Shown piece after piece: positions 12,089-33,722 of a stretch of DNA of 42,398 nucleotides. The translations under genes were made by a program, and so were the position numbers. The notes beneath the pieces were generated by a model. That model was not told the DNA's origin and searched no databases. It saw only the letters and a list, made by a program, of their open reading frames with translations. Within the stretch, counting starts at the first letter, position 1. Each line of letters opens with the position of its first letter. The stretch comes from a virus. Lineage: Duplodnaviria; Caudoviricetes. The DNA lies in the IMG/VR virus record IMGVR_UViG_3300007959_000005, positions 1-42,398 of that record; one strand, written 5' to 3'.

Positions 12089-14707
12089 TTACATGCCGAA
12101 CCCCAGGCCCCATAGTTTGGTGAAGCCGGCCGCCACCGACACTGCCACGGCCCCGATATCGACCCCGCCATAGCCTGCCGCTTTCACTGGAGACGATGAA
12201 CTCGGAGTCATATCGGCGAAGGTGAGGCCGGAGGCATTTGAGAGCAGCGGGTCCTGCGCTGTCAGGGAATGGTCGGCAAAGGCGATGCCGGTATCGGTCT
12301 GGGTGCTGGTCGGGAGGCTGGGGAGGTAGATGCCAGCCTGCACAGTCTCTGCCCCGTCCACCAGTGACACATCCGACTTGATGATGGCATAGGTGCTGGT
12401 CGTGTCCGGAGTAGTCGTCCAAGCAGGCGTTACGCTCAGCACCGTGGCGGTGTTATTGGTGATCGCACGGATCTGACCGGATCCGGTGCCGCCGGTGATG
12501 AGCAGCCAGTGTTGCATGGGACAGTTGGCGTCGTTCTTGGTGGTCGGGAAAGTCTTGCCAGAGTCGGTAAGCGTGCCACCTGTCACCACGCCCTGGGTCG
12601 AAAGCGTACCGCCTGCCGTGGCCGTGCCGGTATAGCTGTTCAGCAGGAGCTGCACCGGCGTTCCCGCACCCCATGCCAGCGTTCTGTCGGTCGCACTGGT
12701 ATAGGTGTAGGTCAGCGTGCCGCTGGACTTGGTGCTGAATGTCGGGTTCCAGAGCGCCACCCCGGCTACATTGGACAGGCCGGTGAAGGTGCCCTGGCGG
12801 TTGATGAGGGCATCACCTGCACCGGGAGTACCGCTGCCGCTGTAGCGGGCCTGGTAGTTGTGATCCAGGTTGAAGTCGAACTGAAGCACTTGTCCGCGCC
12901 AGATGCTTGCTGCGGCTACTGTACGTTTTCTTGCACCCGTGCTCGGTGAGGTTCCAATCCGCTTGGCCAGGTTGTTCCTGATGGTCAAACGAGTCACTAG
13001 GGAGTAGGTATCGGTGTCTTGCATATCACCAAAGCCTAACCACCCCTGCGGGTTACCGATGAAGGTGTTGTTTTCGATGGTGAACAGGTCGATCCAGTGC
13101 CGATGGTTGTACCCCAGCTCGATGTTCGGTGACCCATAGCCCGCACCATCAAGTCCCGCCTCGGTGATGAAGACGTTTCGCTTCACCTCGATATCAGTGG
13201 TATAGATATCGTTGAAAGTGTTGGCTACGACTCCGTGATGAAAGGAGTTGTGCACGATGTTATCTGTGAATCTCGAATATGAAGCGTAGTGAAATGTTCT
13301 GTTGATAAAGTGAAATTCGTTATTCTTTATGACCAGTGGTGATCCGCTAAGCCCCCCCGCCTCTATTACTCGCTGATCTCCAGAACCACCGACACCATAC
13401 AAGACGTTGCCGCTTATTTCAGAAGCCGAAAAGGTGGCCAGACCAGGTTGGGCATACAACAGGTTGTTAGCGATTACCCCCGTGTTGCCTTTTACCTGGA
13501 TCCCCGTGTAATCGGTGGTGGGAGAATAGATGGAAGTTAAAATGAAATGTCCGTACAGATTCAGTACGTTGTCGCTGATGTTGACGTATGTGAAAGAGTC
13601 CCGATAAGAGGATATGGCATAGCCGTATGTTCCATTGCCGCCATCGTTGTTGAACGTGTTCCCGGTGATCTGGATCAGGTCGGCGGCGGTGCCGTTCACC
13701 TTTTTCAACCCCAGCGATTCGGAGCAGTAAGTGAATGTGGAGTTCTTCAGGTAGAAGAGCTGGTCGGCCCCAGCCGTTGCCGACTTCTTGTTTTGCACGT
13801 CGAGCGTCCGGCCCACGTCGGCGGGGGTGATGTTCTTGCCCATGTACGAAAAGTTGCAGTGGTCAAAGAGCGCCGTATTGAACGTGGTGCTCTGGGTTGA
13901 GGAAATTCCCCACCCTTTGCTCACAGCGGTGTAGTTGTAGGTCTTGGTGAAGGCCGGGTTCCCGGACGATGAAACATGGTAAAACCAGACCATGCCCATG
14001 TCGTAGTTGATGTAATACTTCCCGGCGCTGTTCACTTCGGCCAGGGTGAACACTTCGGTTGTCAGGATGGTCGAGGGCGTCTTGGCTGAGAAAGATACCG
14101 TGTTGATCCAGGCATGAGTAAAGGCCACACAGCCGATGTTGTTCACCGGGTCATACTTCCAGGATGTGCCGGAGAACGCCTCGCTGGCAACCGCATTGCT
14201 GTTGCTGTAGGCACCCGAAGGAGAGGTAAAGGTGATCGGCTTGAGGGACGTGCCGATGGCAGAGATGTTGCCCTTGTTGAGAATGAACGAGGTGTAGTCA
14301 CCAGCCACATCGCCGATGATGGTCGTCCCAGGTTGCGGGGCAAAGGTGCCGTACCGGTTGACCAGCATCAAAGTGTTGGTGGTCAGATCGGTGCCCCTGA
14401 GCGTCAAGCTCACCCCGTCGGCTACCTGGTACGTGCCGAAGCTGGACGAGCTTGCGCCGTTGATGGTAATGGCATGGCCCACACTGGAGGCGTTGCTGCC
14501 ATAGGTCCGGTTCACGTCCTGGACGATGACCGCGCCGCTCACGATGGTGATCGTGTCGCCGTCCACTGGTGCGACTCCGCCCACCCACGTCGAACCGGCA
14601 GAGGCAAGCGCCGGAGTCCCGGTGGTGCCGACTGCGTTCGAGGTAAGCGCAGCCGCCCAGGCGGAACATGGCAGCAGCAAGATGATCAGCAGCAGAAACA
14701 TTTTCAT
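12089..14707 (-). CDS. Large (872 aa) beta-helix-like fibre/adhesin with a signal peptide
   Basis: The start MKMFLLLIILLLPCSAWA overlaps the upstream stop (ATGA). STWVGGVAP..GDTITI is G8-like, followed by Asn-rich repeats (ITGNTF, IKNNEF, IENNTF) and a DIGA end motif. Confidence 0.7.
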   Translation of the reverse strand: MKMFLLLIILLLPCSAWAAALTSNAVGTTGTPALASAGSTWVGGVAPVDGDTITIVSGAVIVQDVNRTYGSNASSVGHAITINGASSSSFGTYQVADGVSLTLRGTDLTTNTLMLVNRYGTFAPQPGTTIIGDVAGDYTSFILNKGNISAIGTSLKPITFTSPSGAYSNSNAVASEAFSGTSWKYDPVNNIGCVAFTHAWINTVSFSAKTPSTILTTEVFTLAEVNSAGKYYINYDMGMVWFYHVSSSGNPAFTKTYNYTAVSKGWGISSTQSTTFNTALFDHCNFSYMGKNITPADVGRTLDVQNKKSATAGADQLFYLKNSTFTYCSESLGLKKVNGTAADLIQITGNTFNNDGGNGTYGYAISSYRDSFTYVNISDNVLNLYGHFILTSIYSPTTDYTGIQVKGNTGVIANNLLYAQPGLATFSASEISGNVLYGVGGSGDQRVIEAGGLSGSPLVIKNNEFHFINRTFHYASYSRFTDNIVHNSFHHGVVANTFNDIYTTDIEVKRNVFITEAGLDGAGYGSPNIELGYNHRHWIDLFTIENNTFIGNPQGWLGFGDMQDTDTYSLVTRLTIRNNLAKRIGTSPSTGARKRTVAAASIWRGQVLQFDFNLDHNYQARYSGSGTPGAGDALINRQGTFTGLSNVAGVALWNPTFSTKSSGTLTYTYTSATDRTLAWGAGTPVQLLLNSYTGTATAGGTLSTQGVVTGGTLTDSGKTFPTTKNDANCPMQHWLLITGGTGSGQIRAITNNTATVLSVTPAWTTTPDTTSTYAIIKSDVSLVDGAETVQAGIYLPSLPTSTQTDTGIAFADHSLTAQDPLLSNASGLTFADMTPSSSSPVKAAGYGGVDIGAVAVSVAAGFTKLWGLGFGM

Positions 14708-15045
14708 CGCACGTCGATCCTTTGGAATTTGGCGTTGGCCGGAGTACGGATGAAGTTGACAAAGACGTACGTGGAAAAAAGGCTTTCCTGAGTAGCGTCG
14801 TATGCGGTCACCCTGAAATACCACTTCTCCATCGGGTTGACCGTCACGGTCGCCGGTGGCCGTGAAACGGTGGTGTAGCCTCGGTAGACGAATGTCCGGG
14901 CATTGCCCGAGTAGTTTCCGTAGTAGAGCCGGTAACCATCCGGCTTGGCGCCGGCGGTGGAATCATCCCAGGTAATCGTCACGACGGCGGCATGTGCGAC
15001 CGCGGCCGTCAGCACCATGAATAAAGCCAGCAGCATCCGCTTCAT
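14704..15045 (-). CDS. Fibronectin type III-like small protein with a signal peptide
   Basis: VTITWD..GYRLYYG..WYFRVTAYD..ES.FS pattern; leader MKRMLLALFMVLTAAVAHA; strong RBS. Confidence 0.8.
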   Translation of the reverse strand: MKRMLLALFMVLTAAVAHAAVVTITWDDSTAGAKPDGYRLYYGNYSGNARTFVYRGYTTVSRPPATVTVNPMEKWYFRVTAYDATQESLFSTYVFVNFIRTPANAKFQRIDVR

Positions 15046-15054
15046 GTACCCTCC

Positions 15055-16149
15055 TTACCTGAAGTCCTGGGCCGCTACGCAATAGACGTTGGTTCCGTCC
15101 AGGTAGCAGGAAATGAAGTCGACCGCGCTGGCCGTGGCGGTGATCGTCGGGACCGTGGCGGCCGGCCACTTGATGCCGGTCGAGGTGATGGTGCCCGTGG
15201 GGGTCGACGCCTGCACCACCTTGATCCCGATGACGGCAGTCTTGCCGCTCGGCTGGGTGAACGAAGCGCCCGAAAGAGCGCAGGCCGAGCCGGCGGTGAG
15301 CGTGATGACCTGCCGTGCCCCGTTGGCCGCCGTGATAGGGGCAGCCAGGGAAGTGGTGCAGGCCGTGGTGTACTCTGCCGGATAGTAAACGGCGGCCAGA
15401 GTGGCCCCCGGCTGCAGCGCGCTGTCGGCTTTACCGCCCTGGGTGGAGGTTGCCGCGTCGGTGATGCCGTACCCGGCCAACGTGGTCGGTTTGTTTTTGA
15501 TCGAAGCACCGCCAGAAGTCAGGGCCCAATCGGTATACTGGCCATAAAGCCCCGCAGAAGTACCGGTGGTGTCCTGGTTCAGGATCGGGAAGTTGGTGAG
15601 TCCTGCCGCGCTCCCGGTCGGGCTGAGATAATCCGTCCCGGCCACGGCCGCCGACACGGTGCCGCTGCCGTTGGCCTTCATGATTCCGCTTATCGCGCCG
15701 GCGCCGCCTCGGGCGGCAGCGACAGTGCCTGAGGTGAGGTTGGAGGCATTCGACGCACTCGCGGGAGTTGCGTAATCGGTACCGGCAACGAGCGCGCTTT
15801 GCTTGGCACCCCAGGTCGCCTTCTCCGTGTCGGTGGCGAAGCGGTAGGAGGCGCTCTGGGTAATATTCGCCGGGTTGGTCGTGTCGATCGTCGCCGAAGA
15901 GGCCAGCGCTCCGCCGTCCTTGATGACATTCCCCGTCGTGTTGTTGAACACCGCCACATGGTTGGCCACGATGGTGCCGGTGGGTACGACGCTACCGGAT
16001 CCGCTGCCGCCCGTACCATCCGCCCCCTTGGGACCTTGCGGCCCGGGGACGATGATCTTGAGAACCTGGACACCGCTTCCCAGGGCGGAAACACTGAAGG
16101 AGAGCAATACCAGGACAATAGCTAAGCGACTGTAATAGGTAATCTTCAT
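15055..16149 (-). CDS. Fibre-like protein (364 aa) with a short collagen-like motif and a signal peptide
   Basis: Start MKITYYSRLAIVLVLLSFSVSA (ATGA overlap); GPQGPKGADG; KPTTLAGYGITDA fibre repeat; fibre-type C-terminal domain. Confidence 0.72.
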   Translation of the reverse strand: MKITYYSRLAIVLVLLSFSVSALGSGVQVLKIIVPGPQGPKGADGTGGSGSGSVVPTGTIVANHVAVFNNTTGNVIKDGGALASSATIDTTNPANITQSASYRFATDTEKATWGAKQSALVAGTDYATPASASNASNLTSGTVAAARGGAGAISGIMKANGSGTVSAAVAGTDYLSPTGSAAGLTNFPILNQDTTGTSAGLYGQYTDWALTSGGASIKNKPTTLAGYGITDAATSTQGGKADSALQPGATLAAVYYPAEYTTACTTSLAAPITAANGARQVITLTAGSACALSGASFTQPSGKTAVIGIKVVQASTPTGTITSTGIKWPAATVPTITATASAVDFISCYLDGTNVYCVAAQDFR

Positions 16150-16532
16150 CGGGTCACCACCGGCACTACCATGATTTTGCCGCGCAGCAGGTAAGTACGC
16201 TGCCCGGACGGGTCGATCTGCAGCAGGTCCCACACGCCGTGCTTGTTGGTGGCTGCGGCGGTGCTGGCCTGCGAAAGCGATAGGGTCACCTTGTTGGTGG
16301 TGACGATGGTGCTGAAGTTGAAGAAGGGCGCCGATGAGTAGTCGGTCCTGGCCTGGGCCTGGTAGCTGTAGCCGGTCAGGTCGACGGCACGCCCGTTGCT
16401 CTCGGCCGGGGTGATGGCCAAAGCGAAGCTTTCGCCCCCCTGGACGGTCAGATCGTAGGGGATGGGGAAGCCATCCAGGGCGAAGGCGCTGGTGACTGCC
16501 AGGAGTACCAGGGCGATGATCAGGTATCTCAT
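16146..16532 (-). CDS. Virion accessory/adaptor protein (BppU-N/LtfC-like) with a signal peptide
   Basis: DLTGYSYQAQAR..VWDL..LLRGKIMV pattern; leader MRYLIIALVLLAVTSAFA. Confidence 0.65.
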   Translation of the reverse strand: MRYLIIALVLLAVTSAFALDGFPIPYDLTVQGGESFALAITPAESNGRAVDLTGYSYQAQARTDYSSAPFFNFSTIVTTNKVTLSLSQASTAAATNKHGVWDLLQIDPSGQRTYLLRGKIMVVPVVTR

Positions 16533-17080
16533 GGTTGGGCTCCGAGACTCACGGTGTCGCTGGCATCGACCTGGTCGTCGCCGGGCTTCAGGTAGTAGTT
16601 GAGCGCGACGGTCAGGAGGTCTTCGGCCAGATCGTCGTCATCTATGTTGAGGATGAAGCTGGTGGCAAACTCCAGGTCGTAGACGATGAAGTTGCCCTTG
16701 AAGTCCTCTTCGCTGGTCACGTCTTTGAAGCTTCCCGGGAGCAGGTCGGTGATCTTGAGCCCTACCCGCTGCCGCGCGAGCATCCGGATCACGGCGAAGA
16801 CCAGGGGGTGAATGGCGTCGCGCCGGGCTTCCTCACCACGCGCGTCGCTCATTCTCAGCTGCAGGTGCACCTGGCAGTTAACCCGGAAGCTGACCAGCCC
16901 CACCTTTTCGAGCTTTCCCTCGTAGATCGCCACGACGAGCGCCGGGTCGGTGAAGACGTAGCGCATGTTCTTCTGGCGCCGCGCTGCCTTGAAGGCGGTC
17001 ATGCGCTGCACCAGGAACTCCTCGATGGCTATTTCGATGTCCCCGGGCGTGTTCACCGGGGTGGGGGTCGGATCGGCCAT
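16529..17080 (-). CDS. Mu gp37-like head-tail joining/tail terminator protein
   Basis: Follows gp36; C-terminal LNYYLKPGDD..D.V motif. Confidence 0.7.
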   Translation of the reverse strand: MADPTPTPVNTPGDIEIAIEEFLVQRMTAFKAARRQKNMRYVFTDPALVVAIYEGKLEKVGLVSFRVNCQVHLQLRMSDARGEEARRDAIHPLVFAVIRMLARQRVGLKITDLLPGSFKDVTSEEDFKGNFIVYDLEFATSFILNIDDDDLAEDLLTVALNYYLKPGDDQVDASDTVSLGAQP

Positions 17081-17508
17081 TAGTAGTTTTTTAACCTCTC
17101 GGTGGTGAAGACGCCCACCGGCGCGGGCGACACGGCGATGGTCTGACCCTGCTGGGTCGGAGCGTCCTTGCCGGAGATGCCGAGCTGCAGGTCTCCCTTG
17201 CCGATGGAGACGAGCAGTTTGACCGCGTTGGTGTAACGTTTCTCCCTGTTTTCGGGCACATTCTCGCGCCGGGAGAACAGGTGGTAGCAGACGATGTCCA
17301 GGTCAAGCGAGGCTAAGAAGGGCGGCACCGGGCTGAAGGGCACGTTGTAGAGGCTGGAGCAGTAGCCGTCGACCTGGGCCGAGGCGCGCTCCAGGCACTT
17401 GTCAAGGATGTCCTGGTTGACCACGCCGAGGTTATCGTCGTCGGTCAGCTGGATCAGGGTCGCCTCGGGGATCTCGCCCAGGATATCGTCTTTCGTGCTG
17501 TAGGCCAT
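17080..17508 (-). CDS. Mu gp36/DUF1320 head-tail adaptor
   Basis: MAYST..LIQLTDD..ASAQVDGY..Y.VP..DIVCYHL..RY..A. Confidence 0.92.
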   Translation of the reverse strand: MAYSTKDDILGEIPEATLIQLTDDDNLGVVNQDILDKCLERASAQVDGYCSSLYNVPFSPVPPFLASLDLDIVCYHLFSRRENVPENREKRYTNAVKLLVSIGKGDLQLGISGKDAPTQQGQTIAVSPAPVGVFTTERLKNY

Positions 17509-17562
17509 GTCTGTACTCCGGTGCTACCGAAGGGGCGGACTGCGCCCCCTCGGCTCAGTTGG

Positions 17563-18003
17563 TTATTCCCGGTCCTGGCACATCGTCAAAGATGCGCTGG
17601 TGTTGTTGCCGAAGGTCGAGATTGTGTAGGAGGCGTACCCCCTATTGACCGCAATGCTGCCATTGGAAGCGGGCATCCCGGTGGCGTTGGCGCCAAGCTT
17701 GCGCTGCACCACAAACGGGGTGCCGGTGCTGCTGTTTACGACCGTCCAATCGGCCTTCTTGTACCAGCTGTTGGAGGTGTAAAGGTTGAAAGTCTGGATG
17801 GCCCCGGCGTGGTGGATAGCCTTGGTCACGCAAACCGAGCCTTTAAGGTTGGGGGCGGTGGCAGTGTTGTTCTGTACGACGATTCCGTCGGAGTAGATAG
17901 GCTGCCCGGGCTTGACGTTGACGGTTGTGATGGCGTAGGCGACGCCGGCGACGGCGATGGCCAACATGGCGATAACGCCGATCAGAATGCTTTTGTTTCT
18001 CAT
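17563..18003 (-). CDS. Hypothetical head-region protein with a signal peptide
   Basis: Leader MRNKSILIGVIAMLAIAVAGVAYA; AAAGGAG RBS. Confidence 0.7.
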   Translation of the reverse strand: MRNKSILIGVIAMLAIAVAGVAYAITTVNVKPGQPIYSDGIVVQNNTATAPNLKGSVCVTKAIHHAGAIQTFNLYTSNSWYKKADWTVVNSSTGTPFVVQRKLGANATGMPASNGSIAVNRGYASYTISTFGNNTSASLTMCQDRE

Positions 18004-18032
18004 GGAGCGCTCCTTTGTCGATGGAGGTGCTT

Positions 18033-18060
18033 AAAAGGGGGCGCAGCCTGCGCTGCGCCC
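18033..18060 (-). terminator. Probable intrinsic terminator after the capsid gene
   Basis: 9-bp stem GGGCGCAGC/GCTGCGCCC, followed by CCTTTT on the minus strand. Confidence 0.55.
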
Positions 18061-18090
18061 TGCTGCTTTAACTGGCTCTATTGCCGATTA

Positions 18091-19263
18091 TCACGCCGGG
18101 GTGATGACGACCACGTCGCACAGGCCCAGGGAATTGACCACCGGCAACGGCTTGGATTCGGCGATCAGCGCGTAACCGCTGCCGTCGGGGTGGCGCACCG
18201 GCTTGACGAAGAAGGGCATGGGCTCCAGGTTGCCGTCCAGGTCGTCGATGGATGCGTAGGGCATCCGGTGCCCTGCGTCGGTAGCGATGGCTTTCAGAGT
18301 GTCCTTGGGGACGATGGGAGTGAAGAGGCCGGTGACCGGGCTCCAGTACTCCTCCGCTCTCAGCTCGACCTTGATGGTGCCGATCATGATGTAGTTGTCC
18401 TCAAGCTTCATGCTGACGCCCGCCTCGGACTGGAGCTTGGTCGAGGTGAGGATTTTGGAAACGATGGTGAAGAGCGCCTTGAAAGCATCCTCGCCGGCCC
18501 AGAAGAGAACCTCGCCGCCTACGCCGATGCGCTGGAAAACCTTGCGCAGCTGGATAAAGGTGTCGACGATGTCCACGGCCTTGATGGCCGGATCGTCCCA
18601 GTATTTGTAGCTGCCGGCATCGAGGCTCTGCACCCCGCCGTAATCGATCTCGAAGGTGTCGAAACCGCCCCCTTCGAGCTGCACCGGGTAGGAAAGCTTG
18701 CCGGTGAGTGCCGAAGCGCACATGGCCTCGGTGGTGGCGCGCACGGTGCGACGCAGCACGTCGGTCTTGTTCTGCGCCCAGATCTCCAGCTGGTTCTTGC
18801 TGTTGGGACCGCCCTGGGAGAAGAGGCGCAGGTTGTTAAGATCGGCACCGGTGATGTCGATCTTCGGGTGGATCGGGAGCGGCTCGTAGAACTCGGTGCG
18901 GCCGGTTGCCCCGGTGATGGAGATGGCAGGGGACCCGCGGCGACTCAGGGCCATGGCTCTGATGTACTGGCGGACGATGTCGGAGCCGATCAGCGGACCG
19001 GGCTGCTGCGGGCGGTCTTTGAAGATGCGGTCAAGACAGACGGTCGGGTATGCGGGCCCCAGCACCTGGAGGTACCGGATGATGGCTTCCCGGGTGAAGA
19101 GGTTGCGGATGTTAACGAATCCGGCCAGCAGCAGTGTCTTCCCGAGATGGTCGGCATGGGTAGCAGCCATAGCCTCGTGGCCGGAGCCAAGGGCAAAGGC
19201 CACGATGGCCAGTGCCGTGAGGAGCGACCAGGAAAATAAGGTCTTGAATCTGTTAGTGAGCAT
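18091..19263 (-). CDS. Major capsid protein (lambda gpE-like family) with an N-terminal signal-like extension
   Basis: Follows the protease and decoration genes; RRGSP, LRRTVRATTEAMCASALTGKL and ESKPLPV motifs; AAAGGAG RBS before MLTNRF. Confidence 0.85.
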   Translation of the reverse strand: MLTNRFKTLFSWSLLTALAIVAFALGSGHEAMAATHADHLGKTLLLAGFVNIRNLFTREAIIRYLQVLGPAYPTVCLDRIFKDRPQQPGPLIGSDIVRQYIRAMALSRRGSPAISITGATGRTEFYEPLPIHPKIDITGADLNNLRLFSQGGPNSKNQLEIWAQNKTDVLRRTVRATTEAMCASALTGKLSYPVQLEGGGFDTFEIDYGGVQSLDAGSYKYWDDPAIKAVDIVDTFIQLRKVFQRIGVGGEVLFWAGEDAFKALFTIVSKILTSTKLQSEAGVSMKLEDNYIMIGTIKVELRAEEYWSPVTGLFTPIVPKDTLKAIATDAGHRMPYASIDDLDGNLEPMPFFVKPVRHPDGSGYALIAESKPLPVVNSLGLCDVVVITPA

Positions 19264-19339
19264 TGCTGACTCCTTTAAGGGTGGATACATAATTGCTTAA
19301 ATGGTCGTTGAGCCTCGGTCGGATCGGGGCAAACCGGGG

Positions 19340-19696
19340 TTACTGCGGGAAGAGGCCCGCATTCTGCAACGCGATCAAGGCCGCCTTGGTGGGTGCTGCC
19401 GGCACAGCGGCACCGACCTTGAGCACCGGAGCCTGGACGGATCCGTGGATGACCACCAGGCCGATCTGCTCGGCCGCGGTATCGACCTGCTGGTCCAGGA
19501 CCGCGATGAAGGCCTCGCCCTCGGCAGCCTGGAGCAGGGTGAAGCCGTCGGCGTCACGTTTGAGGAGCAAACCGGTGGGATATACCCCATCGTTAGCCTT
19601 CAGTACGCCGGCAACCAGGACGGGCGGGTGTCCGCCGGGAGACTGGGCGCGTACTTCGTCGCGGGTAAAAGCTGCGGTGGTACCGTTAATGGTCAT
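19340..19696 (-). CDS. Head decoration protein (gpD-like)
   Basis: 118 aa between the protease and capsid genes; VVIHGSV and LQNAGLF motifs. Confidence 0.7.
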   Translation of the reverse strand: MTINGTTAAFTRDEVRAQSPGGHPPVLVAGVLKANDGVYPTGLLLKRDADGFTLLQAAEGEAFIAVLDQQVDTAAEQIGLVVIHGSVQAPVLKVGAAVPAAPTKAALIALQNAGLFPQ

Positions 19697-19756
19697 GACT
19701 ACCTCCGATTTTTTGTTCTCTGTTAAAGCCTAGTTAAAGGGTTGATAAATCCGGGG

Positions 19757-20137
19757 TTAGACGTAGGTGGCGATATCCGCCGGAATCGCGCCGGGCCGCT
19801 TGCCCGGGTTCTCATCTCCGGCTGCCAGCTCGCCAAACTCGATGAGCTTTGGGTAGCTGCCCAGGACGGCCTTGATGGTCTCGACGGGGGACTCGGTTTT
19901 CTTGGCGTCACCCTCGCCAAACTCGATGGTGTCACCGGTGGAGATGCCGGCGCAGAAGTCGAGCACGGCGACGATGGCGGCCTTGTTGGCCGCGAGCAGC
20001 TTGCCGTCGACTATCAGCCCTTCGGCAAAGGCGAGGTTGGCGGCGCGCAGACCGCTGGTTTCCTTCTCTTTCAGGGCTTTGTCCCTGGCGTTCAGTGAGG
20101 CCTCTTTCTCGGCCAGTTGTGCGACGGTGAGCGTCAT
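19757..20137 (-). CDS. Nested in-frame scaffolding protein (Mu gpZ-like)
   Basis: Internal GAAGGAGGAGCC-ATG (MTLTVAQLAEKE), followed by a coiled coil. Confidence 0.65.
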   Translation of the reverse strand: MTLTVAQLAEKEASLNARDKALKEKETSGLRAANLAFAEGLIVDGKLLAANKAAIVAVLDFCAGISTGDTIEFGEGDAKKTESPVETIKAVLGSYPKLIEFGELAAGDENPGKRPGAIPADIATYV

Positions 20138-20818
20138 GGCTCCTCCTTCATGGTTGGGTTCACTGTAATCGGTGGTTGATTGGCTATCGCAAATGCACTC
20201 GGCGCAGGGCATGCTGCAGGAGGCACAGGTTCCTTCCTTGCGCTCGGGGGTAAGGGCTTCCTCGGTGACGGATTGAAGGTCCCATTCGCCCAGGGCCTTA
20301 TCGGCCTTCTCCTGGCCGAACTCCCCGATGAGGAAGTTCTTGAGGTTGCGGAACATGCCGGCGATGGTGCGGTCGTTCCAGTCGCCGAAGTCCATCACCC
20401 CCTCCTCGCCCTCGGCAAAGCTTGCGGCACCCAGCCCCTTGCAGCCCGCAGGGACGGCGCCGAGGAAACCGAGATGGCGCGGGTAGAGCACGCCGGGTAC
20501 CGGGTTGGCGGGAGAGTCCGGCGCGTAGAAGCTGGTGGACACCCGGTCATGTTTGCCGGAGTTGACCCACTCGGCAAAAGCCGGGTCGACGTTGGCCGGC
20601 TCGCCCATGAGAAAACCGTCGGTAAACTCCATGCGCTGGATCTGACCGTACTTCGGGTCGTCCATCTTGGGGTGGCCGATCACCAGGGGGGCGGCGTGCA
20701 GCTCGGGATTGTAGACGGCGGCCGTGGCCCTGAGATCCGCCTCAGTAAACTCGTGGACCTTGCCGTCGGCCGATACGTGGCGGCCGGGCTTGAACATCTT
20801 GATCATCTTGGTTGCCAT
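19757..20818 (-). CDS. Head maturation protease I with a C-terminal scaffold (Mu gp32)
   Basis: MFKPGRH, APLVIGHP, VSTSFY and RHLGFLGAVP motifs. Confidence 0.9.
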   Translation of the reverse strand: MATKMIKMFKPGRHVSADGKVHEFTEADLRATAAVYNPELHAAPLVIGHPKMDDPKYGQIQRMEFTDGFLMGEPANVDPAFAEWVNSGKHDRVSTSFYAPDSPANPVPGVLYPRHLGFLGAVPAGCKGLGAASFAEGEEGVMDFGDWNDRTIAGMFRNLKNFLIGEFGQEKADKALGEWDLQSVTEEALTPERKEGTCASCSMPCAECICDSQSTTDYSEPNHEGGAMTLTVAQLAEKEASLNARDKALKEKETSGLRAANLAFAEGLIVDGKLLAANKAAIVAVLDFCAGISTGDTIEFGEGDAKKTESPVETIKAVLGSYPKLIEFGELAAGDENPGKRPGAIPADIATYV

Positions 20819-20828
20819 GGGTTCTCCT

Positions 20829-21091
20829 TCAGGCCAGCTTGGCCGAGAGGTAGTTCTGCAAGGTCATCTGCGCGATCTGGGTGAGCTGCGCCTCGATGTC
20901 GACCAGGTGGTCCACCTCGTCGGCCAGGATCTCCTCGATGACAGCGCGGGTCGCGGCGTCCTTGTGGGTGAGGCAGAGCGCGATCAGGTCGTTGTAGTTG
21001 ACCACCGCCAGCTCCTCGGATGGTTGATCGCGGTCAGCTCGTCGAGTCTTCGGGCGTTCAAGGCAGCTATGATCTCGGGGTGTCCCTTCAT
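20829..21091 (-). pseudogene. bfr: Bacterioferritin remnant with an internal deletion of about 70 codons and a frameshift
   Basis: MKGHPEIIAALNARRLDELTAIN is joined out of frame to EELAVVNYNDLIALCLTHKDAATRAVIEEILADEVDHLVDIEAQLTQIAQMTLQNYLSAKLA*. Residue spacing matches Bfr E18, E94, E127 and H130. Confidence 0.85.
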
Positions 21092-21335
21092 CGGTTGGTC
21101 TCCATTGTCGTATGGTGCATTGGCACCATACCCCTCTATCGTTGTCCGTTGCAGTTGAGGCCCTTCACAAATTCCGGTGGGCCGATCTGGAACCGCATTA
21201 AAACCCCATTTAAAACTCGCTGTACTGGCCGACCCCTTTCAGGCGCGTACCCATTTAGGTTGGAACGGCTGCAGGGCAAATTTGGAAGCCGTAGCAGCAC
21301 AACTGAAATCGGTCGAAGCGGACTGATCGGACCGA

Positions 21336-21923
21336 TCAGCGCACCCCGTTGGTGAGCCAGGCTTTGCCGGCGTCGATCATGCGTTGGATGCCCCCGGGGC
21401 TGCAGTAGAGGATGGGCCGCGCCGGGATCTTGATGGAATAGGCCTTGCCCTTCACCTTCATCGAGTAGCCGGCCTTGCCCGCCTTGGCGAAGGTGTCGCC
21501 GCTGCCGGGTCGGCCGTGGGTCATCTTGCCCGGGGTTTTCTGCTTGAAGTTGAGCACCCGCTCCCGGGCGGCGAACTTGCTGGAGCCGCCGAAGTGCTGG
21601 ATGCGCGCATATGCCACGTTGGTGCCGCAGACGGCGTTGTTGTTGTCGGACTTCACCTGGAAGCTGGCGGCCAGGCGCCCGCGCACCTGCATGATCTTGC
21701 CGGGCCAGTGCCCCTGGGCCTTGCGCCGCCTGATGGTGCCGGGCTTTAGGCCGCGCCACTTGGCGGGGCGCCCCTCGGCTGAGAAGTTCTCCTCGATCTC
21801 GTCGTGCATGATGCCGCCGATCTGCCGCATGAGCCCCACGGTGTTCTTCGCCTGGCGGGCTATCTTGTCCAGCAGCTGGGCGGCCTCGGCAAAGTTGTCG
21901 GTGACCTTGATCATTTCTCCCAT
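21336..21923 (-). CDS. Virion morphogenesis protein (Mu gpG/gp31)
   Basis: ENFSAEGRP.KW..L and GTNVAYARIQHFGG..IPARPIL motifs. Confidence 0.92.
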   Translation of the reverse strand: MGEMIKVTDNFAEAAQLLDKIARQAKNTVGLMRQIGGIMHDEIEENFSAEGRPAKWRGLKPGTIRRRKAQGHWPGKIMQVRGRLAASFQVKSDNNNAVCGTNVAYARIQHFGGSSKFAARERVLNFKQKTPGKMTHGRPGSGDTFAKAGKAGYSMKVKGKAYSIKIPARPILYCSPGGIQRMIDAGKAWLTNGVR

Positions 21924-22735
21924 AGCTGCCTCACCTGCGGGTCGTACTTCTTGAGGTCGGGCTGAAAGTCGACCTTGCCCGGGTTGTAGCTCCAGCCGAC
22001 GTCGGGGGCGACGCTCTCTTTTTTACCGGTCTGGGGATTGCGGTCGCGGAACACGGTGACCGGCTGCATCTCGCCGCTCTTCTTGCTGACCAGCTCGTCG
22101 CGCTGCGAGAGCTTCCCCTGGGAGCTTTCCACCTCGAGGCCGCGGGCGGCCAGGTTCTCCTGGTCCAGGGCGCGCACCCGGCAGCGGCAGCGCCAGCCGT
22201 TGGGCGGGTAAAAGGAGTTCCAGAAGTCGTCGTTGTACCGGAACACCCGGCCGTTAAGCATGGCGTGGGCCGGGCGGGTACGGGCATCCATGACGGCCAC
22301 GTACTGGAAGTAGGGGCGGGCCTCGACGTTTTCGGCCTGGGTGCGGTAGCGCCCCACGTTGTAGGCGGTCTGCACGTTCTGGTCGAAGATGGTGCGCAGC
22401 CGGTAGGGGCTCCCCAGCTGGACGTCGGTTACCTCGCCGGTCTGTTCGTTGACGGTCTCCTGCTTGCCCCACCATCCCTTGGACTTCAGCTTGGGGGTGA
22501 GGCCCTTGGCGAACTCCTGATAGGTGATGCCATTGTCGAGCGCGTCCTGGACGCCGTCGCGGATGTCCTGGAGAATGTCCATGCGGGTCACTTTGGCCAC
22601 GGTGAAGGCGCGGGCCTGGGCTTCCTGCCAGAGTTCCTGCCAGTCCCAGGTGAAGGCGAACCCCTTGGACTTGAAGTACTCGATGGCCTTCTCGGGCTTG
22701 AGCCCAAGGGCGTATGCAAGGTCGACCTTATTCAT
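21911..22735 (-). CDS. Head morphogenesis protein (Mu gpF/gp30, SPP1 gp7 family)
   Basis: AFTVAK, RLRTIF, D.RTRP.H and PPNGWRCRC motifs. Confidence 0.95.
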   Translation of the reverse strand: MNKVDLAYALGLKPEKAIEYFKSKGFAFTWDWQELWQEAQARAFTVAKVTRMDILQDIRDGVQDALDNGITYQEFAKGLTPKLKSKGWWGKQETVNEQTGEVTDVQLGSPYRLRTIFDQNVQTAYNVGRYRTQAENVEARPYFQYVAVMDARTRPAHAMLNGRVFRYNDDFWNSFYPPNGWRCRCRVRALDQENLAARGLEVESSQGKLSQRDELVSKKSGEMQPVTVFRDRNPQTGKKESVAPDVGWSYNPGKVDFQPDLKKYDPQVRQLWEK

Positions 22736-24329
22736 CCGCCTGCAACCTCCCCCAGACTTCGGCCACGAAGATCACGCGGGCCAGCAGATCCTGGAGCTTG
22801 TCGGTATCCAGCTTGGGGTAGATCTTGATCAGCTCGCCCATGACCTCGGTCAGGTCACCGCTCTCCTTGAACAGCTTGAAGACCGGCTTCAACACGCCTT
22901 CCATGAGCGACTGAAGAGCCGCGGGGGTGAACGACTCGGCCAGGGCGTCAATCTCCAGCTCGCCGGGAAAGGGGTCGTCGCCTTCGGCAAATTCGGTACT
23001 GGTGGCTTCCCGGACGGATAGGTCGGATCGGACCGATTTTGTAGGCGGTTCGGCGGCGGTCTCTTCGACGTCGTCGTCCTGAAGGCCCTGGGTGCGCACA
23101 TAGTAGCTCTTGGAAAGCTTGAGCCCGCTACGCTCCATAGCCTGGGAAAGCGAGTTGTCGCGCTCGGCCAGGGTCTTGGAGTCGTCCTCGTCTTCGCTCT
23201 TGATCTCGATCTTCGGGTAGCGGCCGTGCCCGGGGAACTGGTAATCGACCAGCCAGGGGAGGACGCCGTTCTTGCGGTCGTTCTGGGCCTCGCAGATGCT
23301 ATCTCCGTCGTCCTTCAGGTAGTTCTCCAGGACGTCCTGCTGCTCATCGGCATTACCCAGGCCGCCGGGCTTGCCGGAGGTGGTGGCGGTCTGCCCCAGG
23401 ATGCTGATGGTCATCTCGTCGTTCATGAAGTCGCAGAGCTCTTTGTAGCAACTGATGTTGCCGCTGCGCGCCGCCTCGATGAGCTTCAGGTTCATCCCCT
23501 CGGGGTAGATGATGGCGGAGTTGGAGTGCAGGGCCGACGCGGCCGCCAGGAGCTGCTGCTGCTTTTCGGGGGTGGTGCCGTCCGGGTATTCACCGGCGGC
23601 GGTAGGCGCGGCGAACTTCTCCACGAACATGACCCAAAACTTGATGCCGTTTTTCTTGAAGAACCAGGGCCAGTAAAGCTCCTGTCCCAAGCCGTTGCCA
23701 TAGGGGGTGGTCACCTCGTCGCCAAAGGTGAAGACCTGGAACTTTTTCAAGGGGAGGCCGCTCTCCTGGTTGATGGTTACGTTTTCCCCCGGGTAGGGGT
23801 TGGACAGGGTCATTAGGTGCAGGTCGCCGTTGGGGGCGAAGCGAAAGCGGCGCTGGTGCCGGTAGCGCATATCGGAAATGAAGGTATCGCCCTCGGAAAA
23901 ATCCCACATGACCTCGGCGACGGAATACCCCTTGAGGACCCCGCCCCGCAGCACCGGGCGCCGACAGCGGTCGTAGGGGAAGTTCTGGAAGACCTTGGTG
24001 CAGTACTCCGCGATCTTTATGTCTACGGCTTCCTGGGAAAAGGGTACGATCTGCCAGTCGCGGCCGGTGACAGCCTTGGCGCGGGTACGCAAGCTGGCGG
24101 CCACCCGGCTGTCGCGGGCGATGTCGTCGTAGATGCTGATGTCGCCGCCGTTCTCCATGGTGAGCACGGGGTCGAGGTTCTCCATGACGGGGAGCCAGCC
24201 CTGGAACATGTAGACGTCGGTGGCGGCAGATGCCACCTCCTGGGTCACCGGCCGCTTGCCGTCCACGGTGATCACCGGGTTGAGCAGCTGGCCGTTGTAG
24301 CCGTAAAGGGTGTCGAGTTTGTCGGTCAT
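22728..24329 (-). CDS. Portal protein (Mu gp29, DUF935)
   Basis: PYGNGL, FVEKFAAP and ILGQTATT motifs; start MTDKL at an ATGA overlap. Confidence 0.92.
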   Translation of the reverse strand: MTDKLDTLYGYNGQLLNPVITVDGKRPVTQEVASAATDVYMFQGWLPVMENLDPVLTMENGGDISIYDDIARDSRVAASLRTRAKAVTGRDWQIVPFSQEAVDIKIAEYCTKVFQNFPYDRCRRPVLRGGVLKGYSVAEVMWDFSEGDTFISDMRYRHQRRFRFAPNGDLHLMTLSNPYPGENVTINQESGLPLKKFQVFTFGDEVTTPYGNGLGQELYWPWFFKKNGIKFWVMFVEKFAAPTAAGEYPDGTTPEKQQQLLAAASALHSNSAIIYPEGMNLKLIEAARSGNISCYKELCDFMNDEMTISILGQTATTSGKPGGLGNADEQQDVLENYLKDDGDSICEAQNDRKNGVLPWLVDYQFPGHGRYPKIEIKSEDEDDSKTLAERDNSLSQAMERSGLKLSKSYYVRTQGLQDDDVEETAAEPPTKSVRSDLSVREATSTEFAEGDDPFPGELEIDALAESFTPAALQSLMEGVLKPVFKLFKESGDLTEVMGELIKIYPKLDTDKLQDLLARVIFVAEVWGRLQADE

Positions 24330-24526
24330 CGCTTCTCCGAGTTGCTGCCGGCCGCGTGGCCAAAATGGTAACCGCCGCAAAAGCGGCAGGAGTAGATGTG
24401 GAGGTAGCCGCCATTCTTCTTGCCTGAGCGGATCACCTGGTGCATGGCATCCAGGGCGGCGGCGCTGGTCGGAAAGCGCTTCTTACGCTGGCAGGATCTG
24501 CGGCGGATGCGGCGCTTGCTGGCCAT
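24326..24526 (-). CDS. Small basic protein with a YxCxxCGGYH motif
   Basis: Translationally coupled between neighbours; IYSCRFCGGYHFGH. Confidence 0.65.
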   Translation of the reverse strand: MASKRRIRRRSCQRKKRFPTSAAALDAMHQVIRSGKKNGGYLHIYSCRFCGGYHFGHAAGSNSEKR

Positions 24527-24708
24527 TAGCCGAAGATATCGTCAAGGATGTCTTCCAGATCCTCGCCGATCTCTTTTGTCCGACTCACGGAAAAAGGCTC
24601 TTTGCGGCCTGAAACCGTACCGCCAAGCGTTACCACATCGGCCGCCACCGAGAGGGGGGCCGTGACTACATCTACTCCGAGTTTTGCCAAGCTGCCGAAA
24701 AGTCCCAT
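24526..24708 (-). CDS. Small hypothetical protein (60 aa, MGLFGSLAKLG...)
   Basis: GGAG RBS right after the terminase gene; coupled to the next gene (TAATG). Confidence 0.6.
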   Translation of the reverse strand: MGLFGSLAKLGVDVVTAPLSVAADVVTLGGTVSGRKEPFSVSRTKEIGEDLEDILDDIFG

Positions 24709-24710
24709 TT

Positions 24711-26336
24711 TTATCTCCCCATGTAGTTGCTCATGCTGCGGCCTGCCGACAGACACAGCCCGGTGGGGCCTGAGGTCTGGTGCTCGATGGTGACGGTCTG
24801 CTGCCGGATGGCGAAGTCGCCCAGGACCAGGGCCATGCCGGCGTCGCCATGGCGCTTGAACTCGATGTCCTTGGTGTCCTGGGTGCGTAGCCCGGGGAGC
24901 TTGATGATGCCGTCGATCAGCTCGAAGGTGCGCAGGTCGTTCAGCACGTCGGCGTCGCGGGGCAGGTTCCACTTGTTGTCTTCGAAGCTCTGCTGGAACG
25001 CGCCCATGTTGGCCCGGTACCAGGCGTCGTTAAGCATGACCTCCAGGATCCGCGGCCGGCCGTATTTGTCGGCGGTGGCTTCGGCGAGGCCGTACCCGTT
25101 GCCGGTGGCATCCATGGCACCATTGCGAAACCTCGGCAGGTGATCGATGACATGCCAGAGGATCTGCCGTTGATGCCGGGTCGGCACGTCCTTCATTTCG
25201 ATCATGAAGGGGCAGTTGCGGGTCAGGTCCTGCTCCAGGAAAAGCGGCGCTGTTACGGCGAAGTCGCCGAAGCGGGCATAGTCGGACCCGAAGGAGTACT
25301 CACGCCCACGCATCAGCAGATCGATGCAGGGGTTCAGCTTGATGCGGATCCACTCGGCTATGTAGGAGTCGCGGTAGGCGAGGCCTTTGGGCACGAAGTC
25401 TTTGCCCAGGGTGAGTCGCAGGATCGGCCGCACTTCCTTCATGCTCATCTCGATCAGCACGCCGGGGATCGCCACGCCGGAGCCCTCACGGGGAATGGCA
25501 TCTAGCTCCTCTTTCATGGCGGCCAGGTTGGAGCCGTACCCCTTGCGGATCTTGTCGTACCACTCCTTTTTGCCCTTTTCGCTGGGCTCCCAGCCGCGGA
25601 TCATGCAGACCCGCTCATAGAGCCCGTTGTTGACCGCATCGTCAAAGGTGCAGTGGAACACCTTGAAGGCGTTGAGCCCCGCCCAGGCGTCCCTTATCAG
25701 CTGGTTAAAGGGGTTTTTAAACCCGTTGTGGGTGGAGATGATGCGCACCTTGCCGCCCCAGATCAGGAGCGCCAGGCAGGCGTCGATCACGGCCTGGACG
25801 TTGCTGTGGAAGGCGGCCTCATCGATATCGACGATGCCCTGGAGCCCTCGGATGTTGGCCGGGTTGGAGGAGAGCGCCACGATCTGAAAGCCGGAGGCGA
25901 AGCGGATCCGATAGGAGGTAATCTGCCGGCTGTTGCCGTCCTCCATCTGGTCCTCGAAGAGAAAGACCTCGATGCCGTTCCAGCCGGGCGCCATAGCGCA
26001 GGCCATGATCTTGGCCATGGAAGCGCAGTAGCCGATGAATTCCAGGCCCTTGTCCTTGGTATCTCCCACGTAGTAGATGTTGTCGCCGCCGGCCTTGCGG
26101 TTGCTGGAGGCGGTGATGGTGTCGTCCAGGGCGGTGGCATAGGTGATGCCGGTGCGGCGCCCCTTCTCGGCGATGTTCAGGTCGAACTCGTGGATTTGCT
26201 TGATCCACTGGCGCTGGTGCAGCATCAGCACGCCCTCGGCCAGCAGGTCCGCATTGTTGGGGAGCTCGCGCACCGCCGCCGGAAGTTCGGGGGAGTTGAG
26301 GGCGATGACCCCTATGACGTCGCTGGGCTGGCTCAT
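24711..26336 (-). CDS. Terminase large subunit (Mu gp28-like)
   Basis: EKGRRTGIT, LSSNPANIRGLQG, IDEAAFH, ISTHNG, DATGNG and HGD motifs; start MSQPSD. Confidence 0.93.
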   Translation of the reverse strand: MSQPSDVIGVIALNSPELPAAVRELPNNADLLAEGVLMLHQRQWIKQIHEFDLNIAEKGRRTGITYATALDDTITASSNRKAGGDNIYYVGDTKDKGLEFIGYCASMAKIMACAMAPGWNGIEVFLFEDQMEDGNSRQITSYRIRFASGFQIVALSSNPANIRGLQGIVDIDEAAFHSNVQAVIDACLALLIWGGKVRIISTHNGFKNPFNQLIRDAWAGLNAFKVFHCTFDDAVNNGLYERVCMIRGWEPSEKGKKEWYDKIRKGYGSNLAAMKEELDAIPREGSGVAIPGVLIEMSMKEVRPILRLTLGKDFVPKGLAYRDSYIAEWIRIKLNPCIDLLMRGREYSFGSDYARFGDFAVTAPLFLEQDLTRNCPFMIEMKDVPTRHQRQILWHVIDHLPRFRNGAMDATGNGYGLAEATADKYGRPRILEVMLNDAWYRANMGAFQQSFEDNKWNLPRDADVLNDLRTFELIDGIIKLPGLRTQDTKDIEFKRHGDAGMALVLGDFAIRQQTVTIEHQTSGPTGLCLSAGRSMSNYMGR

Positions 26337-26896
26337 TGCACTCCCAGAACTTTCTGGCGCCAGAAGGCGGCTTGCTCGGCATCCTGGCCCATTTGCACGG
26401 CAGTCTGCTCGACCACGTCGGCAACATCCTTGATGGCCTGCTTGCGGATCTCGCCTTCCCGCTTCACACTGAGGTTGGAGGCCGCCTCGAGGCGCTGGAC
26501 GCCGAGGCACAGGTTGGTGAGCTGCTTGATGGTCCCCTTCATTTCCTCGGGGTCCAGGCTGGCGGTCTGCACCTGGGCCGAAATGTCCCAGAGCAGCGTC
26601 CGGAGCAGCTCGTTGGTGACCTGCCCCATGTCGCCGCTTCCCTGCAGGCTGGCCTTGCCGCCCAGGGTGGCGGCCAGCTCGCGGGAGCGCCTGAGCCTGG
26701 CGCCTACGCTCTCCATGCCTTCCAGCATCTTCTTGCGGGCGGCGGCGCGGGCATCGTCCCACTCGGTGCCGGCCCGCTTCTTCCAGGTGCGCAGGCTGTT
26801 CTCGGAGACGCCGATCTCGACGGCGATCTGGGGGATCTCCCGACCGCTGGCGAAAAGCTCGATGGCCTGCTGCTCGTTTTCGGCGCGCTTGCCCAT
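26333..26896 (-). CDS. Terminase small subunit (Mu gp27/DUF3486-like)
   Basis: N-terminal HTH; directly upstream of terL. Confidence 0.8.
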   Translation of the reverse strand: MGKRAENEQQAIELFASGREIPQIAVEIGVSENSLRTWKKRAGTEWDDARAAARKKMLEGMESVGARLRRSRELAATLGGKASLQGSGDMGQVTNELLRTLLWDISAQVQTASLDPEEMKGTIKQLTNLCLGVQRLEAASNLSVKREGEIRKQAIKDVADVVEQTAVQMGQDAEQAAFWRQKVLGVQ

Positions 26897-30505: not shown

Positions 30506-31765
30506 CTAGCTCTCCTTCACGGTTACTTCTGGGCCACTTGCCCGTTTCCTAAACACCTTCGTGAAACCACCGTCTACACAATGCCCCTTGCAAAGCGCCA
30601 CCCGCGCTAGCCTCACCCTGTCGTTATGGCTATGGTCCGATTGCCGCAACAGCCCGAGGTAGCTGTTCGAACTTTTCATGAGATCTTCGCCGTTTTTGGC
30701 AGAGATGGCCGTTATCGCGTTTGCAAATGTCGTCCGCCTGAGCACTCGGCGCCACGGCTTAATGATCTGCCCGACGAAGTCCACGCCGCGTTCGATGGGT
30801 TGCAGGATCGTCTTGCGCGGATTCAGGGCCAGGTGGAGACGTTCCGACACGAAGCTGCCGATCTCTTTTGCTGCACGGTTCAACCATTCCGGCGATTCGT
30901 GTAGCAGTACCATATCGTCAACGTACCGGACATAATGCCGGGCGCCGATGCGGTGCTTCACATACTGATCAACTAGGTCGAGGTAGACGTTGGCGAAAAA
31001 CTGGCTGCTCAGGTTGCCTATCGGCAGCCCCAGGTGAGGGGGCTGGTTAAATAGGCTCTTATGAGGTGGGATCAGATCCAGCAGTTCCGGCGTGCCCTTG
31101 ATACGGACGTTCTCCCGCGGGTCGTGAAAGAGGATGGCCTCGGCAAGCCACATGACCCACGGCTCTGCTATTTTCCGCGCCAGGAGGCTGTGAAGAATGT
31201 TCTTGTCGATGCTGACGAAGAAGTTGGCCATATCCAGCTTCAGGTAGTAGGCGCGGCGTGACCAGTTCCGGGTGATGCTTCTGACTTTGTGCTCCAGGCG
31301 CATCGCCCCGTAGAGAGTGCCGCGGCCCGGTATGCAGGCGCAGCTATCGGCTATGAAGGAACGATGGAAGCGGTCCGATATCCGGTTGTAGAGCAGATGG
31401 TGGACTACCCGGTCCCGGAAATCGGCCGCCCACACTTCTCGCGGCTTCGGCCTGGTGACGACGAAGCAAATGGAGGTGCCGGGCCGGTATGTTCCGGCTA
31501 TCAGTTCACGGTAGAGCTCCATGATGTTGCGCTCCAGGTTGGCCTCGAATTTAAGAGCATTGATGGTGTTGCGCTTGTGCCTACGACAGTCGTAGTAGGC
31601 ACAGAGCAACTCGTTTACCGACAAATCGGCATCGTTGTAATCTGCGGACCGCCCTGACTCCGAAATTGTTGTTCTTATTGTTGTTGTTCTGGTTGCCATT
31701 GTTGAAATTGATGTTCCATGCGTTGTTGGAGTAGGAGGCGTTGAGTCGTGCTGTTCACGTCGCAT
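30506..31765 (-). CDS. DGR reverse transcriptase (start uncertain; conserved part begins near 31624)
   Basis: KPREVWAADFRDRVVHH, LKLDMANFF, GLPIGNLSSQFFANVYL, YVRYVDD and GVDFVG motifs. Confidence 0.96.
   Translation of the reverse strand: MRREQHDSTPPTPTTHGTSISTMATRTTTIRTTISESGRSADYNDADLSVNELLCAYYDCRRHKRNTINALKFEANLERNIMELYRELIAGTYRPGTSICFVVTRPKPREVWAADFRDRVVHHLLYNRISDRFHRSFIADSCACIPGRGTLYGAMRLEHKVRSITRNWSRRAYYLKLDMANFFVSIDKNILHSLLARKIAEPWVMWLAEAILFHDPRENVRIKGTPELLDLIPPHKSLFNQPPHLGLPIGNLSSQFFANVYLDLVDQYVKHRIGARHYVRYVDDMVLLHESPEWLNRAAKEIGSFVSERLHLALNPRKTILQPIERGVDFVGQIIKPWRRVLRRTTFANAITAISAKNGEDLMKSSNSYLGLLRQSDHSHNDRVRLARVALCKGHCVDGGFTKVFRKRASGPEVTVKES
31638..31742 (-). repeat. DGR template repeat (TR), 105 nt
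   Basis: AAC/AAT-rich copy of both VRs, located between avd and the RT core. Confidence 0.96.
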
Positions 31766-31912
31766 GGCGGAAGGCTGAGCCGATCCGTCATGAAACTGCG
31801 CCGCGACCTTGCGGGAATCCTTCCCGCTAGTTTCGCTGCCGGCGCCTTACCGTGGGGACTATCCCCAGGGGCACAACCAGATTAATTCGCACGGACATAG
31901 CCGCCGTAACGG

Positions 31913-32272
31913 CTATGCAGCAGGCGACGATGCGGACCTGAGCCAACCGGTCGACTGTCTTCCGATCTGGTCGGTCAGCTCGATGGTTTGGGCAAACTGT
32001 CCGGTGGCGATCAGTTTCATATCCTTAGACAGTCTGAGCAGCAGCGTGACCACCTGGAGGCGTTCCTGCAGCTCCTCCAGGTGGGGCCGCTTATCGCGTG
32101 AGCAGTTTGCCCGATAGATCAGCACTACCAGCTCGACACATTCCTCACGCACCTTATTGCCAAGAGATTGCTTGTAGTCCCGCGGCATGTCCTTGGTGAT
32201 GCGGGTGACTACCTGCAAAAGCTCGTAGGTGACGCGATAAATAGGAAGGGTCGAAGCCAGTGCCATGATCAC
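31913..32272 (-). CDS. avd: DGR accessory variability determinant (Avd, four-helix bundle)
   Basis: LPIYR..YELL....MPRDYK.SLG..IGRQSTGW; directly upstream of TR. Confidence 0.9.
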   Translation of the reverse strand: MIMALASTLPIYRVTYELLQVVTRITKDMPRDYKQSLGNKVREECVELVVLIYRANCSRDKRPHLEELQERLQVVTLLLRLSKDMKLIATGQFAQTIELTDQIGRQSTGWLRSASSPAA

Positions 32273-32293
32273 TACCTCAAAATAGATAAAGGG

Positions 32294-32842: not shown

Positions 32843-32871
32843 GTTCATCTCCTTTTTAAATTGGTAAATGG

Positions 32872-33420: not shown

Positions 33421-33524
33421 GTCCATCTCCTTGAATTGCTGAAGTAACATCTTAATTCCGCCCTGGCCCGGGATAGCTGAGCGCGGGCGGTGCCCTCGTG
33501 CCCTCATCGATATCAACGACCATG

Positions 33525-33722
33525 TCACCACTCCGTTCTGCTGTGCAGGTAGTCATAGAAACCCTTTCCGACGCGGCGCTGGGTCTTGTTCTTGGGAACC
33601 TCGATCTCGAAGCCGCGCTTGACGGGTTCTGCCTTGTGATACTTACCTTTGCAGCGGCAGCTGCAGTAGAACTCCTGGTTTGTCTTCAAACGGTTGCCGC
33701 AGGGGCACACGCGGATCTTCAC
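33525..33722 (-). CDS. Small Cys-rich (Zn-finger-like) early protein
   Basis: CPCG...YCSCRC; overlapping start/stop codons. Confidence 0.55.
   Translation of the reverse strand: MKIRVCPCGNRLKTNQEFYCSCRCKGKYHKAEPVKRGFEIEVPKNKTQRRVGKGFYDYLHSRTEW

Follow-up and report, generated by a model that had tools for sequence, protein, structure and literature searches.

Shell proteins of tailed phages are usually taken to be soluble and cytoplasmic, and in the known membrane cases the anchor is the portal. The N-terminal regions of two familiar examples, the HK97 delta domain and the T4 gp23 propeptide, are soluble scaffolding or pro-regions cut by a phage protease. In phage 80alpha the host enzyme Prp cuts leaders from the capsid and scaffolding proteins; in the available text of that work the leader motif lies on non-homologous proteins and the capsid cut is dispensable, pre-cleaved and uncleavable capsid mutants both being viable (PMC5744158). 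T4 and SPN3US head precursors are described as staying at the inner membrane until proteolysis (PMC9026906, PMC3185693), and in the available portions of these accounts attachment runs through the portal together with YidC or a chaperone, at a single vertex of each head, and is an obligatory step. A 2011 review, as far as its available text goes, regards prohead membrane association as shown only for T4; the same text describes filamentous procoat (pVIII/f1), a major coat protein with a host-cleaved signal peptide (PMC3185693). Finally, a single sentence in the available part of a study of the Nixviridae of Porphyromonas gingivalis mentions major capsid proteins with signal peptides (PMC10367356).

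The capsid leader analysed here shares something with each of these systems. By analogy with 80alpha, it would be a removable, dispensable leader on non-homologous phage proteins, presumably cut by the host; unlike the 80alpha leader, it has the full build of a signal peptide with a transmembrane-grade helix, in a host class where Prp was detected in 0 of 101 genomes. As with the Nixviridae proteins, a predicted signal peptide is borne by the major capsid protein of a tailed phage. The hosts differ, however, and a second hydrophobic stretch, a Gly junction, optionality and portability are absent from the available text of that account. In the tether proposed below, head precursors would be held at the inner membrane until proteolysis, as in T4 and SPN3US; unlike in those phages, the signal is on every capsid subunit and is absent from close relatives. 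As in filamentous procoat, a major coat protein carries a signal peptide that is predicted to be cleaved by the host, but the filamentous coat is itself the membrane helix and is extruded, whereas this shell protein is soluble, with an HK97 fold, and its second hydrophobic stretch (h2) is too weak for a stable transmembrane helix. Like the HK97 delta domain and the gp23 propeptide, the leader is an N-terminal part predicted to be absent from the mature protein; those two, however, are soluble and cut by the phage protease, and of the capsid frames in this host class that match PF05065, 0 of 28 begin with a hydrophobic leader. A dedicated study of such a capsid leader was not found in the searched literature, which largely excluded subscription papers.

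The capsid gene and its leader

The window (the whole stretch of DNA analysed, 42,398 nucleotides) is a near-complete Mu-like phage record with a completeness of 82%. Family matches identify its Mu-like features: Mu transposase, Mu gp27, Mu portal, gp36/gp37, and a contractile sheath. The head module (17080-26896, minus) holds a Mu portal, gpF, protease and gp36, but a lambda gpE-type capsid replaces gpT. The capsid core scores 126 bits with the PF03864 Phage_cap_E profile, against a curated cut-off of 22.9, and the phrog_29 match begins at residue 50. The predicted capsid model folds like the Chi, YSD1 and lambda capsids (Foldseek E 2e-13), an HK97-type fold. The features are as follows.

18091-19263, minus: lambda gpE-type major capsid gene (PF03864, phrog_29, fold)
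18091..19119, minus: capsid core of lambda gpE type, from Phe49, the column of the leaderless relatives' Met
19120..19137, minus: second hydrophobic stretch h2, residues 43-48; Gly48 (19122-19120) is the predicted P1 of the maturation cut
19138..19164, minus: polar, mostly acidic linker, residues 34-42; near-neutral evolution
19165..19185, minus: c-region with A31-M32-A33, a predicted signal peptidase I site; contains the non-conserved Met32
19186..19242, minus: first hydrophobic helix h1, residues 8-26, predicted transmembrane (W12, model, insertion energy, pN/pS)
19243..19263, minus: start codon and basic n-region, residues 1-7 (from the sequence)
19270..19276, minus: ribosome-binding site AAAGGAG, 6 nt before the leader ATG (19263)
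19340..19696, minus: small leaderless gene, without a family match, lying between the protease and capsid genes
19757..20818, minus: Mu-type prohead protease/scaffold gene (protease I), upstream of the capsid gene (phrog_976, E 1.8e-91)

From its position, the small gene at 19340..19696 probably encodes a decoration protein. Directly upstream of the protease, a bacterioferritin-like gene is broken (20829-21091, minus): residues 1-24 and 90-155 are left, in different frames, and intact 155-residue copies stand at the same place in two other loci (L003, L004). The early region, not a tail fibre, holds a diversity-generating retroelement (30506-33531, minus), with a reverse transcriptase at 30506-31765 and a template repeat at about 31635-31741. 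Its variable repeats (32300-32406 and 32878-32984) form the 3' ends of two tandem paralogous genes; 19 of 21 and 16 of 17 mismatches, respectively, fall at a template A. Named leader-bearing relatives come from Geobacteraceae, Geobacter, Geothermobacter and Desulfuromonadaceae assemblies, so the host of the window phage is likely a member of the Desulfuromonadia.

The initial annotation had described a signal-peptide-like extension of about 48 residues before a gpE-like core, and the residues, coordinates and core family all agree. The AAAGGAG that it placed at the first ATG, and the GAGG 2 nt from an internal Met (Met32, at 19170), are both present. The alignment of related leaders that it proposed is equally clear: a leader of the same build, 42-53 residues long, occurs in 39 of the 120 homologs listed of 145 matches, and the remaining listed homologs begin at the Phe49 column.

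Is the leader translated? After removal of duplicates and of four truncated or frame-broken loci (L009, L036-L038), the DNA set comprised 96 loci, 15 of them with the leader, and a GGAG-type ribosome-binding site precedes the leader ATG in all 15. Leaderless loci have a ribosome-binding site of their own, often with an in-frame stop close upstream, and are therefore true leaderless genes. Across five related leader-bearing loci (10 non-independent pairs, uncorrected), pN/pS was 0.17 for the n-region plus h1, 0.87 for residues 27-42 (c-region and linker), 0.20 for h2, and 0.17 for the core. Together, the ribosome-binding sites and these ratios indicate that the leader is translated and that its two hydrophobic parts are constrained as strongly as the shell.

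An untranslated extension, an artefact of annotation with the real start at Met32 or near Phe49, is accordingly very improbable. Leaderless relatives do exist, and a Met directly follows the Gly in a few leader-bearing genes (L050 and some gpT genes). Against this stand the 15 ribosome-binding sites and the protein-level constraint; the junction codon, moreover, is a start codon in only one of 16 genes, being TTC in the window. Met32 is not conserved among leaders, and so is not an alternative start; its GAGG is just 2 nt upstream. The artefact reading is thus largely refuted. An additional in-frame ATG at 19290, which would add 9 residues, has no Shine-Dalgarno-like sequence.

The leader (capsid residues 1-48, 19263-19120, minus) consists of a basic start, a transmembrane-grade helix, an A-x-A, a linker, h2 and Gly48. 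Its anatomy was assessed over 47 distinct leaders, drawn from 15 loci and 32 proteins; figures for a second, distant capsid lineage, introduced below, are given alongside. The first eight residues have a net charge of at least +1 in 47/47, and the second lineage has a basic n-region in 46/47. Trp12 is invariant across 39 leaders. On our own rough scale of insertion energy, h1 reads approximately -1.5 in the window, with medians of -2.5 and -2.4 in the first and second lineages. A strict A-x-A pattern falls within residues 24-38 in 42/47 leaders (45/47 by a loose pattern; 40/47 in the second lineage), and A33 is at least 90% conserved in the two lineages. As judged from sequence, the leader thus has what Sec and signal peptidase I call for: a basic n-region, a transmembrane-grade h-region, and A-x-A at -3,-1.

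The linker averages 0.19 K/R to 0.91 D/E, with pLDDT below 50. For h2 the approximate insertion energy on the same scale is +4.7 in the window, where the usual Pro of h2 is missing; the lineage medians are +3.2 and +2.7, and values at or below +1 occur in 0/47 and 3/47 leaders. The AlphaFold model predicts a helix at residues 3-27, and its confidence at 27-49 is too low to show how the leader packs. An ESM Atlas search with residues 1-60 returned no usable match.

Gain and loss of the leader

A FastTree of 148 cores, which includes protein-only rows with unchecked start sites, places 17 changes of leader state, 14 of them forced by well-supported branches. Restriction to 31 DNA-checked rows, hand-picked from the leader-bearing clade and its neighbours, leaves nine gains or losses (seven forced), a count that cannot separate gain, loss and 5-prime recombination. 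Nine is no fewer than with shuffled labels (mean 10.6; 112 of 500 shuffles as low). Gene order is the same with and without the leader, and siblings that differ in leader state have prohead proteases up to 89% identical. No compensating gene was seen in leaderless phages when 16 leader-bearing and 15 leaderless loci were compared. These comparisons indicate that the leader is optional and dispensable in evolution. It therefore cannot be an obligatory anchor for procapsid assembly. An extension both unconserved and dispensable had been named as grounds against a function; the leader proves conserved where present, and evolutionarily dispensable. An essential propeptide of the HK97 delta type is rejected, given DNA-checked leaderless siblings with the same gene order.

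Rapid gain and loss would fit host-dependent, fluctuating selection, as expected if the leader were a hydrophobic brake or shield that delays folding or assembly, or hides the nascent capsid protein from a capsid-sensing defence, before being clipped at Gly48. Bacterial immunity can reportedly be triggered by capsid proteins, and the weak h2 also suits such a role. The A-x-A conserved at the canonical distance and the invariantly basic n-region, however, point to selection for Sec and signal peptidase I, and no link between the leader and a defence system emerged; a brake or shield is unlikely.

Could the leader instead be a working export signal? Some of the capsid pool would then enter the periplasm to serve a second role, with the remainder assembling. 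The initial annotation had raised such export, and h1 with the A-x-A makes a canonical Sec signal, whose transfer h2 may not be strong enough to stop. In the morphogenesis operon, five further genes (12089-18003, minus) also have signal-peptide-like starts: 17563-18003, 16146-16532, 15055-16146, 14704-15045 and 12089-14704. These secreted-type neighbours do not track the leader, however: L004 is leaderless with one, whereas L043 and L046 have the leader without one. DNA packaging is cytoplasmic, and export leaves the constrained h2 and the invariant Gly at the ancestral start unexplained. Partial export is distinctly unlikely. Where tested, the five genes gave no match to the capsid leader profile; their products may be exported, and become part of the virion or travel with it.

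The same leader on other capsids

A word-index search with the leader alignment gave nine matches, confined to the same capsid lineage. A HMMER scan of 1.84 billion representatives with the leader profile likewise gave nine; several were repeat-rich unrelated proteins, and two led to the second gpE lineage, whose capsid is 25% identical to the window protein. This lineage belongs to lambda-like phages with a lambda portal and either an S49 protease (L117) or ClpP (L121, L128). The leader is present in 47 of the 120 second-lineage proteins listed of 384 matches, with the Gly end in the same register in 47/47. Between lineages, leaders are up to 60% identical and the cores share 20-24%. The first-lineage profile scores second-lineage leaders at a median of 38 bits (range 3-51); eight ordinary signal peptides from the same phages reach at most 8.8 bits.

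How specific is the leader to capsids? With a leader-only profile built from both lineages and every candidate scored in five host genomes, only the capsid gene matched, in four of the five; no non-capsid host protein matched. Among 401 genomes of the host class there were at least 19 matches in 17 genomes, counts that are lower bounds with 17 candidates scored per genome. Thirteen of the 19 are capsid N-termini, including four in or identical to the training set and one fragment assigned by eye (L204). Five of the thirteen belong to Mu gpT, two to a third gpE group, and one to the GP7-type capsid of a podovirus-like cluster. The remaining six matches, to secreted or membrane proteins, are partial and weaker. 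No new full match of the capsid type came from 401 genomes sampled across the phylum, where, apart from the seed genome, five weak partial matches fell on other proteins or reading frames.

The class sample has 15 full-length gpT capsids: six with a Gly-ended leader, three with an Ala-ended variant, and six with none. The variant leaders (L236, L238, L239) are signal-like, with a Trp in the linker and an Ala before the normal start. In the GP7-capsid cluster, an upstream scaffold-like protein (L217:7895-8611, minus; phrog_458, a protease by label) opens with a hydrophobic piece of 20 residues that also ends in Gly and resembles h2 alone.

Judged by these profiles, the leader is common to several unrelated capsid proteins of Desulfuromonadia prophages, spanning three capsid families and three protease types.

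The junction and a possible membrane step

The final leader residue is Gly in 47/47 leaders of each lineage. The residue after it is F, I, V, L or M in 47/47 first-lineage leaders (Phe in 29/47), and drifts among F, I, V, L, M, T and A over all sets. The rule for removal of the initiator Met by Met-aminopeptidase is established. When it was applied to leaderless proteins, with Val counted as not removed, their N-terminal length equalled that left by a cut after the Gly in 71/77 first-lineage and 64/69 second-lineage cases. A fixed small residue followed by a variable one, located at the ancestral start, has the look of a P1 position, and these three features together predict a cut after Gly48.

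Several leader-processing enzymes can be set aside. A lipoprotein signal for signal peptidase II would need a Cys after the Gly, a position held by F, I, V, L or M in 47/47. Type IV prepilin leaders, cut by PilD, have a Gly-Phe junction, Glu at +5 and then a long hydrophobic helix; here +5 is an invariant Arg (R53), and the hydrophobic part precedes the Gly. A search of 101 host-class genomes detected Prp (PF04327) in none, its control being positive in 3 of 14, and a Prp-cleaved leader is rejected on that basis. A hairpin of the filamentous procoat type would need a second full transmembrane helix, for which the insertion energy of h2 (about +3) is unsuitable.

The initial annotation tentatively attributed removal to protease I. 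In the corresponding scheme a procapsid would be bound to the inner membrane by the leader, and the phage's own prohead protease would clip the leader after the Gly during maturation. There is precedent: in the available text of one source, the proheads of T4 and SPN3US assemble at the inner membrane until freed by prohead proteolysis (PMC9026906), and the accessible part of another suggests that prohead proteases cut the capsid signal peptides of Porphyromonas phages (PMC10367356). A protease or protease-labelled gene also adjoins the capsid gene in the loci examined. Yet the same Gly-ended leader accompanies Mu-type, S49 and ClpP proteases, and also appears on capsids of the gpT and GP7 types. 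Nor does the presence of the leader follow protease sequence, as the sibling proteases noted above show. In addition, F-[AGS]-[ED] repeats occur seven times in protease I (19757-20818), three times in the portal (22728-24329), and not at all in the capsid protein; these may be the targets of protease I. (The motifs are conserved over related proteases, as candidate self-cleavage sites; in its available text, the JBD30 paper gives no cleavage site for a Mu-type protease, PMC11445458.) Removal by the phage protease is therefore disfavoured and, as a scheme, unlikely. One junction shared by three unrelated prohead proteases and three capsid families, together with the placement of the repeats, favours a host enzyme.

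The preferred reading is that the leader is a portable, capsid-specific membrane tether removed by the host, by signal peptidase I and then after the Gly, and not by protease I; its chance is put a little below even. In outline, h1 would insert in the inner membrane, N-in, and signal peptidase I would cut at A31-M32-A33, after Ala33. The weak, Gly/Ala-rich h2 would halt export, with the core held loosely on the cytoplasmic side; a postulated host protease would then cut after Gly48 to release a normal capsid subunit into the cytoplasm. The purpose may be transient tethering: new subunits would be concentrated at the membrane, or held back there, which would help in some hosts without being needed to build a capsid. 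Of the inner-membrane anchoring first proposed, membrane targeting survives as the best reading of the anatomy; the obligatory procapsid anchor does not. Several observations count against a tether. As a poor transmembrane segment, h2 leaves a clean helical hairpin unsupported; the first 15 core residues of the second lineage are net acidic (1.0 K/R, 3.5 D/E), contrary to the positive-inside rule; and Ala, not Gly, ends the leader in three of the 15 gpT capsids.

A more general proposal, possible though doubtful, is that the leader is a mobile, capsid-specific maturation cassette of Desulfuromonadia tailed phages. It would be acquired before the start codon of any separate-scaffold shell protein, and would pass that protein through a host membrane-insertion route with two host cuts, the second by a protease that reads hydrophobic-x-Gly.

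Together, these results show that the capsid leader is real, under constraint, optional and portable; the proposed host membrane step is likely. That one leader moves among unrelated capsid folds of a single host class suggests a host enzyme and a host-specific pressure, and almost identical phages that have or lack it offer a clean natural experiment. On the practical side, leader-bearing capsid genes are easily mis-started or annotated as secreted proteins, and recombinant particles may need removal of the leader. If the cassette reading is true, these phages would have an undescribed, host-dependent membrane step in capsid maturation.
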